Source of the DNA: Escherichia coli
GTDB lineage: Bacteria > Pseudomonadota > Gammaproteobacteria > Enterobacterales > Enterobacteriaceae
Strand: one strand, 5' to 3'
DNA length: 19,576 nt
Assembly: GCF_003334765.1 (NCBI RefSeq)
Contig: NZ_QOWT01000051.1
The notes under the pieces were generated by a model, which was not told the origin of the DNA, did not search any database, and saw nothing but the letters and a program-made list of their open reading frames with translations. Positions 8,483 to 16,268 of this stretch are shown in pieces (the first letter of the stretch is position 1; each line of letters begins with the position of its first letter). A program made the translations under genes and the position numbers.

Positions 8483-9340
8483 TCAGGGGGAAGCTGTGGC
8501 CAGCCGGCTGTAATTGCGGTTACGCGACAGAATCATGCGCTCCTTCACACGACGCTCCACTTCACGTTTTACCGCCTCACGACTGGCAGTGAAGCGCCCT
8601 TCCGAGATTTCACGCGTCAGCTGTCGTTTCACCAGGGTGACGATATCCTGACGTTCCCTGCCCGCATCACGACGCGCACGGGCACGCTTTATTCCCCGGG
8701 ACTTAAGCTCTGTCTGGTAACTGCGGAAACGCTCACGCACAAAACGCCAGGCTTTCGCTATCAGTTCATCCATACCCAGGGTATCCAGCCCCTGCTTTTT
8801 GCGCTGTTTGTTTTCCCATACCACACGGCTGCGGCGCGCAGCTGCCACTGCATCCTCAGACACATCAAGGGCGGCAAACAGCGCCAGTGTGAACGTGATA
8901 TCGGTCGGAATGTAGCACCCGATAAGCGGGTCATATTCCGTCTGGTAGGTAATCAGTCCCAGCTCTGACAGGGACGTCAGGGCCCGGGTGGCCCGGGTGA
9001 TGGAGAGTTTTCCTGCACCGGACTCTGTCGCCAGTCCGCACTCAATGGCCAGCGTGGTGATGGAACACTGGACGCGGTTGGCCAGCGGGTCATAATGGAA
9101 ACACAGCCCCTGCAGCAGCGCATCAATAGCCCGTCGACGCAGCACCGGTGGCATGCGTCGACGCAGACCACGCGAACGGGCATGCGCCACATGAATAGCG
9201 AAATCAAAACGGGAGCTGAAGCCCACCGCTTTTTCCATCAGTTTTTCGCAGAACTTCAGCGTTCCGGCACCTTCACGGGGTGTGAACACCGGATTCGGGT
9301 TCTTTACCTGGCGGTAATACGTTTGGTGAAGATCAGTCAC
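8483..9340 (-). CDS. repA1: IncFII replication initiator RepA1
   Basis: Near-identical to the recalled R100/R1 RepA1 ([40 protein letters not shown]...[12 protein letters not shown]). The likely start is the GTG giving MTDLHQ (285 aa); the track ORF 8483..9352 begins four codons earlier. Confidence 0.95.
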
Positions 9341-9407
9341 ACCATCCTGCACTTATGTTGCACAGAAGGAGTGAGCACAGAAAGAAGTCTTGAACTTTTC
9401 CGGTCAT
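9333..9407 (-). CDS. tap: RepA leader peptide Tap (repA6), translationally coupled to repA1
   Basis: 24-codon [27 protein letters not shown] whose TGA overlaps the repA1 GTG start (GTGTGACTG); size and position match the IncFII tap peptide. Confidence 0.6.
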
Positions 9408-9418
9408 ATAACTATACT
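9390..9418 (+). promoter_or_regulatory. CopA antisense-RNA promoter
   Basis: -35 TTGAAC, 17-bp spacer, -10 TATACT, directed opposite to repA mRNA. Confidence 0.55.
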
Positions 9419-9425
9419 CCCCGCA

Positions 9426-9511
9426 TAGAGCAACAGCTTCTATGCAGTTTCTTGTTAGCCCCGGTAATCTTCTCTTAGTCGCCAAACCTGGTGAAGATTA
9501 TCGGGGTTTTT
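9426..9511 (+). ncRNA. copA: CopA-like antisense RNA (copy-number control)
   Basis: About 85 nt from the predicted start to an intrinsic terminator: long stem CCCCGGTAATCTTC/GAAGATTATCGGGG followed by TTTTT. Lies in the repA leader between copB and tap, antisense to repA mRNA. Confidence 0.6.
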
Positions 9512-9566
9512 GCTTTTCTGGCTCCTGTAGATCCACATCAGAACCAGTTCCCTGCCACCTTACGGC

Positions 9567-9578
9567 GTGGCCAGCCAC
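9567..9578. promoter_or_regulatory. Candidate CopB operator at the repA promoter
   Basis: Inverted repeat GTGGC-ca-GCCAC between copB and the CopA region, where CopB is known to repress PrepA in IncFII plasmids; exact promoter elements not resolved. Confidence 0.3.
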
Positions 9579-9644
9579 AAAATTCCTTAAACGATCAGTA
9601 ATCTAGCACTAATCTTCTGAACACTCAAGAATGTAAGCCCATCA

Positions 9645-9899
9645 TCACATGCATCGTTTTTGCGCTTCACTTTTTATCAGTGCGGTCAGAACTTCAGCCT
9701 GGGTCAGGCCATCTTCATTACACATTTGCATGAGCATGGCCTTATACTTTGGTTCGAGAAATACTTTTACTTCCTTGAACGAAGCTCTTTTACGGGCCAC
9801 TGATAATCTTTGTTTCTCTGCATCAGAAAGCGGATTCCCCTTTCTGTATGCTCGTTTTGCGCCAGATGAGGAAGTCACTGTATTTTCTGTCTGCGACAT
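9645..9899 (-). CDS. copB: Replication regulatory protein RepA2/CopB
   Basis: 84-aa ORF MSQTENTVTSSSGAKRAYRKGNPLSDAEKQRLSVARKRASFKEVKVF..., matching recalled IncFII CopB; upstream of the copA/tap/repA1 cassette. Confidence 0.9.
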   Translation of the reverse strand: MSQTENTVTSSSGAKRAYRKGNPLSDAEKQRLSVARKRASFKEVKVFLEPKYKAMLMQMCNEDGLTQAEVLTALIKSEAQKRCM

Positions 9900-10078
9900 C
9901 TCGCCTCCTCAATACTTAAACAGGGATCGTTTCGCAGAGAATACTACAGTTTTTTGAAATCAGCGACTTGAAAGTTGTGACGATGATCTGTGTTGGCGCA
10001 CAAATCATGTCTGATTACGACCGTTTAATGTAATTTTGATAATAAAATGACTGAAAAGTAGGAAATGCTTTAACCAGG

Positions 10079-10110
10079 GTACCGGCCCCGGGCGGGACCG
10101 GCAGTTTCTA
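10079..10110 (-). terminator. 3' stem-loops of the hok/srnB-like mRNA
   Basis: Downstream of the toxin stop on the minus strand: hairpins GGGGAC-ggaa-GTCCCC and CCGGTCCC/GGGGCCGG. Could be terminator and/or fold-back structures of a hok-type mRNA. Confidence 0.3.
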
Positions 10111-10195
10111 GCATTTCGGGTGTCTGCCCCTGAAATACCTCACACTTCCGGAAAGCGGGGACTTCCGTCCCCGCCCGGCAGCTTACTTCCGTGCT

Positions 10196-10330
10196 TCAGG
10201 CCAGAGTTACCTGCACCACTGTATTTCCCCTGTGAATATTCAGTTCACATAACTGTTCCCTGAATATCAGTGAAAAACACAACACCGTGGCGCACACGGC
10301 AAGCAACCCGATAAGGGTATATTTCGTCAT
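10196..10330 (-). CDS. srnB: Hok/Gef-family type I toxin (SrnB-like), C-terminally shortened
   Basis: 44-codon ORF MTKYTLIGLLAVCATVLCFSLIFREQLCELNIHRGNTVVQVTLA, close to recalled F-plasmid SrnB. The canonical C-terminus LAYEARK is replaced by an early TGA; restoring 2 nt (CTGGCCT-AC-GAAGCACGGAAGTAA) would recreate it. Below the ORF-track length cutoff. Confidence 0.75.
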   Translation of the reverse strand: MTKYTLIGLLAVCATVLCFSLIFREQLCELNIHRGNTVVQVTLA

Positions 10331-10335
10331 AAACT

Positions 10336-10365
10336 TTGACATCTTTGCAAAGAAGAGGCTAGAAT
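10336..10365 (+). promoter_or_regulatory. Promoter for a Sok/SrnC-like antisense RNA
   Basis: Near-consensus -35 TTGACA, 18-bp spacer, -10 TAGAAT on the strand opposite the toxin, overlapping the toxin start and firing into its leader; the RNA 3' end was not located. Confidence 0.5.
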
Positions 10366-11150
10366 CAGTAGTGCATCATGCAGACCTCACGAGTTAATGG
10401 ATTAACGAGTGGGGTCTTCGCATTTCTGAAACCTGCGTCTTATTCAGCCATTCTTCGGTCATCTGCAGCAGTTTTCTTGCATCGTGACTTCTGAGCAACG
10501 GAATGCCAGCCTGCCTCAGAACCTCTTCCAGAAGAGTATCCCAGCATCTGCGTTCCGAACGTAAATGACTGTCATCAGCCAGCTATACTGCTGCAACAAT
10601 ACTGAACGAACGCCGTTCAACGATAACCACATCGACATGCACTGAGATACCATCCTGAATAACTGCCACCACTGGCGCGATCAGATATTAGTTGTCTGGA
10701 GATTCAGGGGACAACCTAACTTGAGCCCGCTATAGCGCGAAGCCGAAAATTATTGTTCGTATGCTCCCGCTGGTCCAGAATGGGAATTCCCTCTGGCTGA
10801 TGTTGAACTGTCATGGAGAATTGAAACTTGTTTAAGACTTTGGCAGCCTACTGTTTTTAATACACCCAATAAGGTATGAAGATGAAACTAGGGAAGTTAA
10901 TACCGCCATGAAAAGATAAATAATACCCGTGGAATATATTTCCTCATGTTACTCTCCATATCAAATAAATGGCACCTGTATTTCAGACATCCTGAATATT
11001 ACAGCACACATTGAACAACACCTTATTTTGTGAAATTAATCACAAAATATAAAATCACGACTTAATACGGAAAAAACTCTGTGCTACTCAGAACTGTCCG
11101 GTCATACTGCCCGACCGGATATTAAAAAAAGCAAATCTCATGCATTATTC

Positions 11151-11195
11151 AGCCTTCTGAATCCCTGGAGTAATGAAGGCTGCTTTTTTCGTTAC
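11151..11195 (+). terminator. Intrinsic terminator-like hairpin
   Basis: Stem CAGCCTTC/GAAGGCTG with a 17-nt loop followed by CTTTTTTC on the plus strand, after an AT-rich region with no convincing ORF. Confidence 0.3.
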
Positions 11196-11413
11196 ACCCT
11201 TCCCCGGCTGCGCCGGTGGCAGTGTTCAGCCCTTTTTCGGGCAAACTGCTGCCAGTCTGTCCGGGGCGCAACACCGGCAGCCCGTCGCCATGCTTCTGCC
11301 GCTTCCATCCAGCGTCCACTGACCTCCAGAATAACGGCCCGGCTTCCGGCACGCTGCCAGCGCCAGACCTGACCGTTCCGTGAACTGTTTCTGAATCCAT
11401 TCATCTTTATCAC
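11192..11413 (-). CDS. Hypothetical small protein downstream of finO
   Basis: 73-aa ORF (MIKMNGFRNSSRNGQVWRWQRAGSRAV...) in the position of the small conserved ORFs found downstream of finO in F-like plasmids; overlaps an alternative-frame ORF at 11149..11400; no recognisable motif. Confidence 0.3.
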   Translation of the reverse strand: MIKMNGFRNSSRNGQVWRWQRAGSRAVILEVSGRWMEAAEAWRRAAGVAPRTDWQQFARKRAEHCHRRSRGRV

Positions 11414-11535
11414 TCCTCTTTAACCCGTCAGTATTATGGTGTTAAATAATCTACTGAATTGGCTTCCTTTCGGGTACGGAAGTTATTTCCTTTTAAGCCT
11501 TATTTCCCTGCCTCCTCTCTGATGGAGGCTTTTTT

Positions 11536-12096
11536 TTATTTCTCATCAAGCACGGCCTGAAGTTCTGCCTTTATCCGGTTCTGGCGGCGGATTTTATCCA
11601 GACGCGCTGCGGCATACGCTTCCTCCTCCTGAGAAATATGCTCCGTCACATACCCTTCCGTGTCATACCGGCAGGCACCGGCTTTCATGGCACACAGATA
11701 GCTTTCTGAACGGGTGATGGCCTTCAGCGCCCTGCGCAGTTTTTTATGCGAGAGCGGGATATTCCGCTGCGCCACGTCTTCCAGTAACACGTCCCGGATA
11801 CCGCAGGCCAGAAGCCGGGGCGTGTCACCGTCAAACAATCCCGGCCACCAGGGTTTCAGGGTATTCACGGCCTCATCCAGCGTGGGCAGGTTCAGATAAA
11901 TGGACAGTGCCTGTCTGGCCTGCGCTTTTTTTGCCGCCAGCTCTGCTTCCCGGGCTGCTTTCTCGGCCAGCTTCTGCTTTTTCACCTTCCACTTTGGTGG
12001 CGTGGTGACATTGATGATGGTTTTCCGGCTGCGGACAGGCGTCTCCCCTTCCGTTTTCCGCTTCAGTGTCAGTACCGGTCGCTTCTGCTCTGTCAT
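11536..12096 (-). CDS. finO: Fertility inhibition protein FinO (ProQ/FinO-family RNA chaperone)
   Basis: 186-aa ORF essentially identical to recalled F/R100 FinO ([50 protein letters not shown]...). Confidence 0.95.
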
Positions 12097-12150
12097 GCTG
12101 TGTTCTGCCTCTGACGAATCATCCTGTTACGGTCAAAGATACCACACCCG

Positions 12151-12500
12151 TCACAGCGCCAGAACGCCCAGCACAGCCAGATGACAGGCGTAGAATACCG
12201 GGAAAAAATCCCCGGGCCAGAAACGGGGTAATGATTTTCCTGCACACGACACCAGACCAACGGTCAGCACCGTCATCAAAAGACCAGCCACCGCCGCTGC
12301 ATCACTGGTGGCAAGGTTAAGCGCCGGAATAACAGCCAGCAGGCAGGCGACCAGCGCCAGACGTTCCGCTCTGTCTTCCGCCCGGTACAGCCGGTGGCTG
12401 ACTGCCAGCATCAGCAGCCCGGCAATGCCGTAACTGGTGCCGGACAAGGGCCCCCACAGGGCCATCAGAAGAATGGCCGCTGCTGTACGCCACCCGGTCT
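12151..12500 (-). pseudogene. traX: traX 3' fragment (pilin acetylase), 5' part deleted
   Basis: Encodes GWRTAAAILLMALWGPLSGTSYGIAGLLMLAVSHRLYRAEDRAERLAL...FYACHLAVLGVLAL, matching the C-terminal 115 or so residues of F TraX. The frame is entered without a start codon at about 12498, where it abuts the traI fragment. Confidence 0.85.
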
Positions 12501-12951
12501 ATCACATAGCGGTCATGACTGCGTGTCTCCGGGTTCCACTGCTCCATCACCATCCCCGGACGGTACATATCCCGCAGATAACGGCTCCGGCTGTCCAGCC
12601 AGACCGGTGACAGTGCAGTCATGGTCACCTCAGGGTGTCCGAGCACGCCCTGCGTTTTCAGCTCACTGCGAATGGCCTGTGTCAGTATGGCCTGTTCCCG
12701 TACCCCGCTGACCTGTGCCACGCTCTCTTCTCCGGCTTTCACGCTGGCCGCAAAATCTCCGGCCAGCCGGGCATAGCGGACATTACGGTCCGGTTCACTG
12801 ATGATGGTGGCCGGTCGCTGTTCTCCCCCCTGCCAGCGATATGTGTTCACCCCGGCATCCTTCATGGCCATCAGCGCACTGCCTGTACCGGTTCGCTGCC
12901 CGCTGTCGGTTATCAGGACCTGTACGTTATGACGTGCGGCACCATCCAGCC
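12501..12951 (-). pseudogene. traI: Internal fragment of relaxase/helicase gene traI
   Basis: In-frame segment ARHNVQVLITDSGQRTGTGSALMAMKDAGVNTYRWQGGEQRPATIISEPDRNVRYARLAGDFAASVKAGEESVAQVSGVREQAILTQAIRSELKTQGVLGHPEVTMTALSPVWLDSRSRYLRDMYRPGMVMEQWNPETRSHDRYVIDRV matches recalled F TraI. Both flanks of track ORF 12317..13129 are out-of-frame read-through. No relaxase N-terminus and no oriT. Confidence 0.7.
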
Positions 12952-13280
12952 GGAATGATGCCACGCTCTGCCAGCATGTTGAGTGCTGCCAGTCGGCGAC
13001 CACCTGCGGCGACACCGTAACGGTCACCAGGCAGGGTATGCACGACCAGATTCTGCAACAGGCCAACGCCCTTAATGGACTCCGCCAGTTCGCTGACGGA
13101 CTCTGCGGAATACGGCACCGTGCGCACATTCAGCGGTGATTTAATCAGTGAAGCCAGCGGCACACTCACTTCCTCCGTCTGCGCCAGCAGGGCAGACAGG
13201 ACTGTTTCCTGCGTTTTTACAGATTTAAGGCTTGCTTTGCGGGTGGTTTCTGGTTCACACTTCGTTACAGGCATAATCAT
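12952..13280 (-). pseudogene. 5' fragment of a ParB-like nuclease-domain gene (F leading region)
   Basis: Track ORF 12927..13280: ParB/Srx-type N-terminal domain (GLLQNLVVHTLPGDRYGVAAGGRRLAALNMLAERGIIPA), then non-homologous residues and a stop right at the junction with the traI fragment. Full-length homologs are much longer. Confidence 0.6.
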
Positions 13281-13332
13281 CCCCTTATAATTGCTTATGT
13301 CCTGCCGGACGTTCGCGCGTCCGGCACCTCTC

Positions 13333-13593
13333 TTACTTAAGAATCCCGAAATCCCTGATGTACCGGTTCATCCAGTACCCGGCACAGTCCTCAAAATTCC
13401 AGGAGCGCCAGATCAACGTGCCATCCTGACGGGCAACCAGGCGAAAATGCGTTCCCTGATCATCCTCGATAAAGACATTCCGGTACTGTGCGGCAACGGC
13501 TTCAGCCTGTTCGCGGGTAAAGGAGCCGTCAGGCAGCCCCTGAAATATTCTGAAATATTCGCTCATCCTCATCTCTCCGGTGATGCCCCGCAC
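13333..13593 (-). CDS. Conserved small leading-region protein, function unknown
   Basis: 86-aa ORF ([86 protein letters not shown]) between the ssb remnant and the ParB-like fragment; no recognisable catalytic motif. Confidence 0.5.
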
Positions 13594-13621
13594 TGGACGG
13601 GGCGGTTGTCACTGTCTTAGT

Positions 13622-13885
13622 TCAGAACGGAATGTCGTCATCGAAGTCATACGCGGGTTCAGACGGCTGCTGAGGCTCCGGCTGCGCGGCCTTACGTCCA
13701 CGGCCTTTCGTTTTCGCGCCACCTTTTTTCGTCGCGTCAGCACTCTGTGGCTGCCCATTCTGCTGAGGCTTCGGTTGCGCCTGAGCGTTCTGCTGTGGTG
13801 CACTCCCCAGCATCTGCATGGTGCCCGTGGTCTTAACAAGAATTTCAGTGACGTAACGGGTGATACCGTTATCTTCCCAACTACG
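13622..13885 (-). pseudogene. ssb: ssb 3' remnant (plasmid SSB C-terminal region with acidic tail)
   Basis: Track ORF 13622..13924: from about residue 14 it matches the end of the SSB OB-fold and linker ([27 protein letters not shown]...) and ends with the hallmark tail DFDDDIPF. The first 13 residues are not SSB-like and the upstream 270 nt an SSB N-terminus would need are occupied by the methyltransferase gene. Confidence 0.7.
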
Positions 13886-13923
13886 GGCAGACGGGCATTT
13901 ATCCTCCCGCCAGCCCTGTGTCA

Positions 13924-14487
13924 TCAGGCACGCAGACGAATAATCATCGTCGGGACATCGGTATAAGCAAACGTGCCGCGCGGCAGCTCCTCGCGGACGT
14001 CAGAAAACGGTAACAGCTTCTCCTGCTGGCGCGGCCCGTTCAGACAGACGGCAACCAGCACGCCACCCGGACGCAACAGGGAAAAAGCCCGCAGGATATG
14101 CCGGATATCCTGCCCGTGACTGAACGGCGGATTCATGATAACCCGGCTGTAATACTGCACCGGCTGCCATTCCATGAAGTCGCCACACTGAACCCTGACA
14201 CCGTTAAAATTTTCCCGCAGATACCGGACCAGCCCGCTGTTAATCTCCACCGCATCACACATGGCCTCCGGCGCGGTATCCCGAATCGCCCGCAGTATGG
14301 CCCCGGTGCCGGCAGAGGGTTCCAGAATGTGATCACGGTTGCTGATTTCCGCCAGCGTCACCAGGCGATCACAGACCGGGGCAGGAGTCACAAAAAGCTG
14401 AGATTCAGCCCGGATTTCAGCAACCGGCGCGACGTTATCCAGCCTTGCACGCATCAGCCGGATACGTTCTCTTAACTGACTGTGCAT
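13924..14487 (-). CDS. Small class I SAM-dependent methyltransferase (leading-region orphan MTase, amino-MTase NPPF motif)
   Basis: 187-aa ORF with SAM-binding motif [12 protein letters not shown] and catalytic-type motif IMNPPFSHG; its stop overlaps the start of the ssb-remnant ORF. Substrate (DNA vs RNA) cannot be decided from sequence alone. Confidence 0.7.
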
Positions 14488-14533
14488 GTCATTATCTCCG
14501 TCATCCCCCGGGGATTTCCCGGGGGGATATACC

Positions 14534-15895
14534 TTATTTCTGTGGGATTTCCGTGATTTTCATGTCGGTAATATACACATTCACCAGGCGGAAATTATTG
14601 TCCATTGTGCGGCGGTAGCGGTATGCCCCGTGGTCTTCTGTCTCTGCCACACTGCGCACGGCCTTACAGTCCCGGGGCAGGGCGGCCCACTGCGCCTTTG
14701 TCATTTCCCGGAAACCTTCCCCCGGATAGTTGACTACCGGCGGACGCTTCGCGGCCTGACTGGCGACGGCAGCCTCTTCTGCCGATGGTGCTTTGTAGTC
14801 CGTGATGCGATCGGGCGTCACTTTCATCGTGCCGCTGTACCCGAGAAAACTGTAATTCGGCGTTGTGACTGAACTCACCGCCCCGTTGCTTTTGTTCACG
14901 CGGATGATGGTCAGCCACTCGCCCCGGCTGAAAACCTGTCCGCCCGGCTCAAAATCCTGTGTCCGGGTAACCACGCCGCCGCTTTCGTCCAGCATGGCAC
15001 GCTCATAGATCAGGCGGTTCTGATAGTGGTTAACCCAGCGTTGCTGATGCTGAATCTGCCGTTCATGACAGCGGATCGCAATTTCGCGGGCCTGCTCCGT
15101 GGTGATGATGTCATCATCCAGGGCCGACCATAACGATCGACTTCCTTCATACTGGCTTTTTTCTGCCGGGCGCGGATACGTATCCAGCGGGAAACAGGCG
15201 CTGATATGGTCATGACTGCTGATGAGTTTTGCCATATTCAGATCCAGCGATTCAGCCCGCCACATCGTCAGATATTTCTGCGACTGCGCGATGGTCTTTT
15301 CAGCCTTGCGCAAATCAGCTTCGATTTTTTTGATACGACGCCAGCGAACGTCCGGGCGTTCTTTATACTTCGCGTGAAGCAGTGCCGACCGCGCCCGCTC
15401 CTCCCAGTATTCCGCACGTTCAAAGAGCATCACGGCACGTTTCATGCCGTTTTCAATACGCTGCGCATCACGACGGGCGCGGCGTTCGCTGTGATGCCCC
15501 ACAAGAATGGGCTGACCGGGCGGGATCATCGCGGCCAGTCTTTCCACTTCATCAAGTGCCTGTGCGGATTCACTGGCCCGCTTTCCGCTGTATCCGGTAA
15601 ACCGCTCCGCCCGTGCTTCCTGACGTTCAGCGAGCGTGCTGTCTTCATCCTCAATCTCTCCGGCAAGTGAGAGGAGCACGTCTTCCCGGCCCGGTGTCCA
15701 GGCTGGCGCGACAAACAGCGCCTGTTTGGGTGCCCAGCGAAAACCGGCATCATGCACTTTTTTATACGTCTCCGGGTCAAGACGTGACGCGGCATACAGG
15801 CGCAGTTTGTTGTCATCCGGTGAGTAGGTCGCGCGGTACATCTGCACAGGGCTGGCGGCTTCCGGGGCGGTCATGGTGATTGCTGCTAATGTCAT
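14534..15895 (-). CDS. Large conserved leading-region protein of unknown function
   Basis: 453-aa ORF, no transmembrane or catalytic motif recognisable by eye, charged and possibly coiled-coil central region. Position and orientation match conserved large ORFs of IncF leading regions; family not assigned. Confidence 0.55.
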   Translation of the reverse strand: MTLAAITMTAPEAASPVQMYRATYSPDDNKLRLYAASRLDPETYKKVHDAGFRWAPKQALFVAPAWTPGREDVLLSLAGEIEDEDSTLAERQEARAERFTGYSGKRASESAQALDEVERLAAMIPPGQPILVGHHSERRARRDAQRIENGMKRAVMLFERAEYWEERARSALLHAKYKERPDVRWRRIKKIEADLRKAEKTIAQSQKYLTMWRAESLDLNMAKLISSHDHISACFPLDTYPRPAEKSQYEGSRSLWSALDDDIITTEQAREIAIRCHERQIQHQQRWVNHYQNRLIYERAMLDESGGVVTRTQDFEPGGQVFSRGEWLTIIRVNKSNGAVSSVTTPNYSFLGYSGTMKVTPDRITDYKAPSAEEAAVASQAAKRPPVVNYPGEGFREMTKAQWAALPRDCKAVRSVAETEDHGAYRYRRTMDNNFRLVNVYITDMKITEIPQK

Positions 15896-15946
15896 AAAAT
15901 GTTCTCCTTCCGTCTGTTGCCGCCCCTCGCGGGGCGGCTCACCTCA

Positions 15947-16177
15947 TCAGTTAAAAGCGCGTTTCAGTTCGAGTGTGCGGAGCACCTGCCCGAAGGCCGT
16001 GTTTTTCATGGCGGGGATGTGTACACCACGCCCCCGGTGAAAACTCCGGGCTATGTGTCGCCCGAAGGCTTTCAGCACGGGGTCAATTTCCGGCGCGGGG
16101 ATGTCTTCGCGTCTGAAACGGGGATGACGGCGGGGCTTTACAGCCGCTGCGGAAGGTGAAACAATGCTTACAGTCAT
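15947..16177 (-). CDS. Hypothetical small basic protein
   Basis: 76-aa ORF upstream of the 453-aa gene on the same strand, overlapped by an 86-aa plus-strand ORF (15899..16159); coding status uncertain. Confidence 0.25.
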   Translation of the reverse strand: MTVSIVSPSAAAVKPRRHPRFRREDIPAPEIDPVLKAFGRHIARSFHRGRGVHIPAMKNTAFGQVLRTLELKRAFN

Positions 16178-16239
16178 AAATGGATTCCTTATGACAGTTT
16201 GGTAACAGTGCCTTAAAGACTGGTTGCACAGTCTCTTCG

Positions 16240-16268
16240 GCGTGGATTAAGCAGGTCCCTGACCTGCT
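16240..16268 (+). terminator. Terminator-like hairpin
   Basis: GCAGGTC-cct-GACCTGC followed by TTTTTTC on the plus strand. Confidence 0.3.

Follow-up and report, generated by a model that had tools for sequence, protein, structure and literature searches.

A deletion-scarred early-expression module of conjugative plasmids in Escherichia coli, encoding a putative split DNA methyltransferase

The Escherichia coli DNA analysed here (the window, 19,576 nucleotides) raises the question of what a block of leading-region genes, at positions 13333-16177, may do on a plasmid from which the transfer functions have been deleted. The initial annotation described four open reading frames in this block, considered them unannotated and saw in them the likeliest place in the window for some undescribed function, such as protective DNA modification. 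All four are found on the minus strand exactly where they had been placed (Table 1; the 86-aa frame, read from a GTG, spans 13333-13593), and the label of leading region is correct, since the DNA is that of an F-like plasmid. They are coding rather than non-coding, as indicated by dN/dS values of 0.08-0.28 and by lengths that are kept across Enterobacterales; for ydaB, ydbA and ydcA dN/dS reveals purifying selection, with 0.16 for the 76-aa and 0.09 for the 453-aa gene in comparison with an Edwardsiella plasmid, and 0.09 for the methyltransferase gene in comparison with an IncI/K plasmid. They are not undescribed, since annotations of these genes exist for thousands of plasmids (the block matches at least 5000 records, the module being present in at least that many sequenced enterobacterial plasmids) and their families appear in the supplementary table of uncharacterised leading-region families of Samuel et al. 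2024, where DUF905 is family 2 and DUF3560 is family 28; no tested function for any of the four proteins was found in the literature searched. The block represents a copy, scarred by deletions, of an early-expression module that is very common among conjugative plasmids, and its genes are already catalogued in leading-region families. The explanation developed below, towards which we lean slightly when it is taken as a whole, is that the region is the remainder of an IncF/IncI-type leading region, namely of its conserved "early establishment" part, that it encodes a split YdbA-YdcA protective methyltransferase, and that in this plasmid it is a silent relic.

Table 1. Features of the leading-region block and its borders (positions in the window)
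Feature	Position	Strand	Description
ParB-like leading-region gene (yfjB/herB), 5' remnant	12947..13280	-	about 110 codons; joined at ~12946 to an internal traI fragment
DUF905 gene (yfjA / yubL / ykfF family)	13333..13566	-	77 aa from ATG; the 86-aa version uses the upstream GTG at 13593
Chimeric 100-aa ORF	13622..13924	-	13 small-ORF codons in frame with SSB residues ~86-175
ydcA	13924..14487	-	187 aa; orphan gamma-class (TaqI/EcoKI/DarB-like) amino-methyltransferase catalytic domain, without target-recognition domain
ydbA	14534..15895	-	453 aa, DUF3560; proposed non-catalytic partner of the methyltransferase
ydaB-like gene	15947..16177	-	76 aa, very basic (pI 11.9); first gene after the hairpin
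Frpo/ssi class-1-type single-strand DNA promoter hairpin (putative)	16440..16720	+	281 nt; wider repeat ~16407-16984

The 86-aa frame encodes a DUF905 protein, as revealed by Pfam (E 9e-35) and by the match to YkfF (UPF0401; PDB 2hjj, E 5.6e-22). The frame exists as given; its start is probably the internal ATG at 13566, which agrees with the annotated coordinates in the intact relatives L001 and L002. Between this gene and ydcA lies a 100-aa ORF that had been overlooked. Its small-ORF part overlaps the methyltransferase stop codon (TGATG), while its SSB part comprises the end of the OB fold, the linker and the DFDDDIPF tip; only positions 86-175 of the 175 in the NCBIfam plasmid SSB model are covered, and a complete N-terminal OB fold is not found. 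The junction within this ORF is located at 13884-13887 and displays CCCG microhomology. Indeed, window positions 12947-13887 correspond to positions 6001-6941 of the intact IncF plasmid L001 and window positions 13884-19502 to its positions 8024-13642; because of the jump from 6941 to 8024, 1082 bp are missing, and this deletion took the small-ORF region, a second Frpo copy and the first ~85 codons of ssb.

A second, large deletion joined codon ~110 of parB to the middle of traI, and psiB, psiA, hok/sok, oriT and nearly all tra genes are gone. At this border, ORF 12927-13280 gives ParB N-terminal matches, ORF 12317-13129 matches positions 388-545 of the TraI model, and homology to L001 starts at 12947; the ParB remnant abuts the internal traI fragment, which is followed by a C-terminal traX fragment and finO, confirming the loss of transfer functions. 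The two junctions together were not found among the best matches in PLSDB or in 5426 complete E. coli genomes. The genes ydaB, ydbA and ydcA are intact, and the sequence of the block agrees at 99.95-100% with its counterpart on an intact conjugative IncF plasmid, the ydcA product differing from the intact plasmid's copy by a single change, A19V, at a variable residue. From this near-identity it follows that the deletions are recent, and retention of the block therefore does not imply selection. Moreover, the operon is no longer inducible by entry, because the plasmid is without oriT. Thus, the block in the window is a recent deletion remnant that does not attest to selection for its retention, and the operon is probably a recent, silent and not-yet-decayed relic. 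A stronger form of this conclusion, to which we give an even chance, is that the ORFs in the window are inert leftovers of oriT loss, with no biology beyond the deletion scars: oriT and the tra genes are gone, ssb is truncated, the near-identity to the intact plasmid indicates that there was no time for decay, and the junctions are missing from the best matches in the complete E. coli genomes. On the other side, all three operon genes are intact and selection on them is clear at the family level.

The signals for expression of these genes bear on the same point. Upstream of ydaB lies a Frpo-type hairpin, also overlooked in the earlier reading, which folds in the plus strand; this strand is the one transferred, and it serves as template for the genes on the minus strand. 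Over 585 nt, the repeat containing the hairpin shares 92.8% identity with the stretch of the F plasmid immediately before ssb (Frpo2); for the Frpo1 region of F the value is 84.5%, and the hairpin core is 91.8% identical to Frpo2. The DNA fold has an energy of -86.6 kcal/mol (z = -10.9), and 59 base pairs are conserved across 16 homologous copies, 13 of them with compensatory (double-sided) changes. Sequence homology and a long, stable, covarying stem-loop in the template strand thus both point to Frpo/ssi class 1. In the right arm, near the loop, a TGGACA box and an A/T-rich tract can be recognised by eye; a convincing -10 element at canonical spacing could not be placed. A consensus scan for conventional sigma-70 promoters gave no match on the minus strand upstream of ydaB, and a conventional promoter for the operon was dropped from consideration; an Rfam scan gave nothing within the block and only CopA and AS-pc02 elsewhere in the window. 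The lack of a double-strand promoter match is consistent with inert leftovers, although the hairpin promoter could still fire weakly from a transiently single-stranded lagging-strand template.

Frpo2 is a proven single-strand promoter, needed for early ssb/yfjA expression in F (PMC9849209), and in pESBL class-1 ssi/Frpo promoters and six induced operons have been described (PMC12672017). The hairpin in the window shares with Frpo1 and Frpo2 of F and with ssi1-3 of ColIb-P9 (Masai & Arai 1997; Couturier et al. 2023; PMC12672017) both the long imperfect stem and the placement upstream of a leading-region operon. Differently from the two copies of F, it is a third copy and a putative promoter for ydaB-ydbA-ydcA, an operon that is absent from F; since F itself is without the block, this module is dispensable for conjugation as such. 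In intact relatives the class 1 hairpin would drive ydaB, ydbA, ydcA and one or two small ORFs, and the second Frpo copy would drive ssb, DUF905, the parB-like gene, psiB and psiA; the window retains the former copy only. The four frames are not four independent candidates: three of them would be transcribed as one operon from a single-strand promoter, and among these two appear to be the halves of one enzyme.

The catalytic half would be YdcA, for which the label of amino-methyltransferase proved correct, its EPSAGTG and NPPF motifs being invariant. On a Rossmann fold, a TP-capped helix (motif X), the AdoMet motif I and the NPP(Y/F) motif IV follow one another in this order, and the corresponding segments QLFVTP (aa 30-35), EPSAGTGA (56-63) and MNPPF (118-122) are invariant in 13 diverse homologs. 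The best PDB sequence match is M.TaqI, aligned over aa 33-135, and the top Foldseek matches are PacII M, type I HsdM and M.TaqI. PHROG gives matches to methyltransferase modules of giant phage proteins and to families labelled DNA methyltransferase (E about 1e-31), PADLOC to mad2 and Type II MTases, and Pfam to MTS, Methyltransf_25 and RrnaAD. A target-recognition domain or an HsdS-like subunit is absent, the protein ending about 65 residues after motif IV, and the enzyme is an orphan, as first suggested, with no nuclease gene nearby.

The matches of YdcA to Erm/KsgA rRNA methyltransferases, HemK and MJ0882 in NCBIfam and PDB profiles are about as strong as that to M.TaqI, and a different substrate has to be weighed. 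YdbA-YdcA might methylate RNA or protein (host rRNA, tRNA or a glutamine of a host factor) as a form of early host reprogramming, an alternative that we regard as improbable and that would be the more surprising outcome. The best NCBIfam matches are indeed the Erm and KsgA rRNA adenine methyltransferases (E 1e-8 to 1e-7) and PrmC, and the PDB profiles of MJ0882, KsgA, HemK and ErmC' are matched at E values similar to that of M.TaqI. NPPF occurs also in m2G rRNA methyltransferases and NPPY in HemK. A precedent for host reprogramming by a leading-region protein is provided by YfjB/HerB (PMC13370423). Conversely, a TP-capped helix preceding motif I, when combined with NPP(F/Y), marks the EcoKI/TaqI clade of DNA adenine methyltransferases, and the DarB-type clade was defined by the TP-helix plus NPP(Y/F) (PMC5512222); furthermore, the strongest family matches are the phage polyvalent modules and families labelled DNA methyltransferase, PADLOC points to DNA methyltransferases, and the top structural matches are DNA m6A methyltransferases. 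A role in DNA methylation is thus preferred.

YdbA had been described as lacking any recognisable domain, which is wrong: Pfam DUF3560 (PF12083) matches aa 89-206 with E 1.1e-36, and the same match is found in 80/80 aligned relatives. The AF2 model (pLDDT 92.8, pTM 0.81) displays an arginine- and aromatic-rich protein in which two small alpha/beta domains are accompanied by a long bundle of helices and a small beta-barrel; about 79 positions are conserved at 90% or more, 16 of them being Arg, and a loop, GQPILVGHHSE, is strictly conserved. Comparison of the fold with the PDB gave no meaningful match and no known catalytic fold, and similarity to known DNA-binding or target-recognition domains was not detectable; in AFDB, only DUF3560 proteins are matched, many of them fused to methyltransferases.

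These fusions are the main indication for a relationship between the two proteins. A YdcA homolog is fused C-terminally to a YdbA-like protein in 99 of the 146 best 50%-cluster representatives; because of this, YdbA and YdcA appear, from sequence comparison, to be two halves of one split enzyme. The pair YdbA/YdcA is the split form of a single protein of 630-700 aa, which is found widely among plasmids, integrative elements and phage-like elements, the fused relatives occurring across Proteobacteria and beyond. In Pfam searches MTS was found in 67/80 relatives at E<=0.1, in 50 of these at E<=0.001, and about one third of the relatives are DUF3560 proteins without a fused methyltransferase. Where the two are separate the genes stay together: ydcA lies ~46-50 bp downstream of ydbA in 8/8 enterobacterial loci with ydbA, and in an independent split pair, which adjoins a Lar restriction-alleviation gene, the genes overlap by 4 nt. 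The polyvalent-protein domain LPD29 is present in one large relative that combines DUF3560 with a methyltransferase. AF2 modelling of the concatenated YdbA-YdcA gave confident domains; since the pTM is only 0.62 and the pLDDT of the linker is low, there is no confident interface between the two.

In intact plasmids the module adjoins KlcA/ArdB and M.EcoGIX homologs and, together with the Lar neighbour of the independent pair, this favours a counter-restriction context. The same observations argue against another reading, also improbable in our judgement, in which the DNA methyltransferase would serve epigenetic timing (of replication, complementary-strand synthesis or expression), or YdbA itself would be the anti-defence protein with YdcA as accessory. 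M.EcoGIX activity is reportedly linked to replication mode, which would suit a timing role. Frpo hairpins, moreover, double as replication roadblocks and primers (bioRxiv 2026.01.09.698686; PMC12672017). As for YdbA, its conserved loop could be more than a mere binding surface and one third of its relatives do without a methyltransferase, but it has no known catalytic fold. Protective modification remains the most plausible role for the methyltransferase, in keeping with the initial proposal, and our best guess is that YdbA-YdcA performs protective adenine methylation of entering DNA.

The first gene of the operon, ydaB, is conserved in length and sequence down to about 75% identity, with dN/dS 0.15-0.28. 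Pfam gives a weak match to HU-CCDC81_euk_1 at aa 25-62 (E 7e-4); comparison with HU/IHF by hhalign reached 8% probability over 34 columns, with no beta-arm, and a PDB profile search found nothing, so that an HU/IHF-like identity was rejected as unproven. In other plasmids ydaB precedes varied payload genes, always downstream of a Frpo-like repeat. Genes found downstream of it include three different methyltransferase-like genes and ssb, and a paralog with 43% identity precedes an Rpn nuclease gene. Since ssb and Rpn also follow and the constant partner is the Frpo repeat, YdaB is not methyltransferase-specific, and a function as an adaptor of the methyltransferase was rejected. A species-dereplicated genome scan for distant relatives gave 13 loci only, 11 of them in Enterobacterales genomes; the other two are near-identical copies (96-99%) and lie on contigs binned as Oscillospiraceae metagenome-assembled genomes, being probably mis-binned. 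We propose that YdaB is a generic first gene of Frpo operons.

Orphan methyltransferases are enriched in leading regions (PMC11541004), and a close parallel is M.EcoGIX of pESBL (IncI1), which blocks restriction and modifies the entering strand by methylation (Fomenkov et al. 2020, PMC7736820). M.EcoGIX and its IncF homologs are, like YdcA, orphan leading-region methyltransferases transcribable from the entering strand; in established cells M.EcoGIX is silent, and it is expected to counter restriction at an early stage, the same as is proposed for YdcA. Identity of the two was rejected, since M.EcoGIX belongs to a different family (N6_N4_Mtase, PF01555, about 227 aa), to which YdcA gives no match, and is encoded by a separate gene. 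Indeed, a PF01555 "DNA methylase" is a separate gene in L002, L003 and L008, and in intact plasmids the M.EcoGIX homolog occurs together with ydcA (14367-15050 in L002, 4069-4749 in L008); it is absent from the window. Its promoter is of class 3 (PMC12672017), differently from the class-1 type of ydaB-ydbA-ydcA, and, while M.EcoGIX works on its own, the DUF3560 partner of YdcA looks obligatory.

A second parallel is P1 DarB, of the methylase-helicase dyad of polyvalent proteins (Iyer et al. 2017, PMC5512222), which by sequence falls in the same methyltransferase clade, sharing the TP-helix, motif I and NPP(F/Y); the nearest phage relatives of YdcA are giant polyvalent proteins. Both DarB and, as proposed here, YdbA-YdcA are deployed by an invading element at entry; YdbA-YdcA, rather than being packaged or injected, would be made in the recipient from the hairpin promoter. 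The LPD36 domain and SNF2 helicase that lie N-terminal and C-terminal to the methyltransferase in the DarB dyad were not found by Pfam, which gave methyltransferase domains alone for YdcA and DUF3560 alone for YdbA and its relatives; what is shared is the methyltransferase core, and the partner module is DUF3560. Finally, M.TaqI and type I HsdM have collinear motifs and are the nearest solved structures to YdcA; their recognition domain or HsdS-type partner would be replaced by a DUF3560 protein of unrelated fold.

In the mechanism that we propose for intact plasmids, entry into the recipient as a single strand would fire the hairpin promoter, and YdbA and YdcA would be made within minutes. 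YdcA would supply the TaqI/EcoKI/DarB-type N6-adenine catalytic core and YdbA the substrate binding or targeting, leading to low-specificity adenine methylation of entering or newly replicated plasmid DNA and blunting restriction, an effect of methylation that was shown for M.EcoGIX (PMC7736820) and proposed for P1 DarB. A bolder version, which we put forward tentatively and consider rather doubtful, is that YdbA is a previously unrecognised targeting subunit with which the domain-less methyltransferase core hits the entering strand or the nascent duplex almost nonspecifically, and that YdaB, a small basic protein, is dedicated to Frpo-type hairpin operons and acts on them; if true, IncF/IncI plasmids would have, besides M.EcoGIX, another protective methyltransferase for the entry phase, with a distinct mechanism.

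Leading-region genes decide the survival of resistance plasmids in the first minutes in a new host, and most are without known function. Seen as one split enzyme, two genes so far called "hypothetical" become a single unit open to testing; should the pair prove to be a protective methyltransferase of low specificity, it would help to explain the weak restriction of conjugation and would represent a new accessory fold for DNA methyltransferases.

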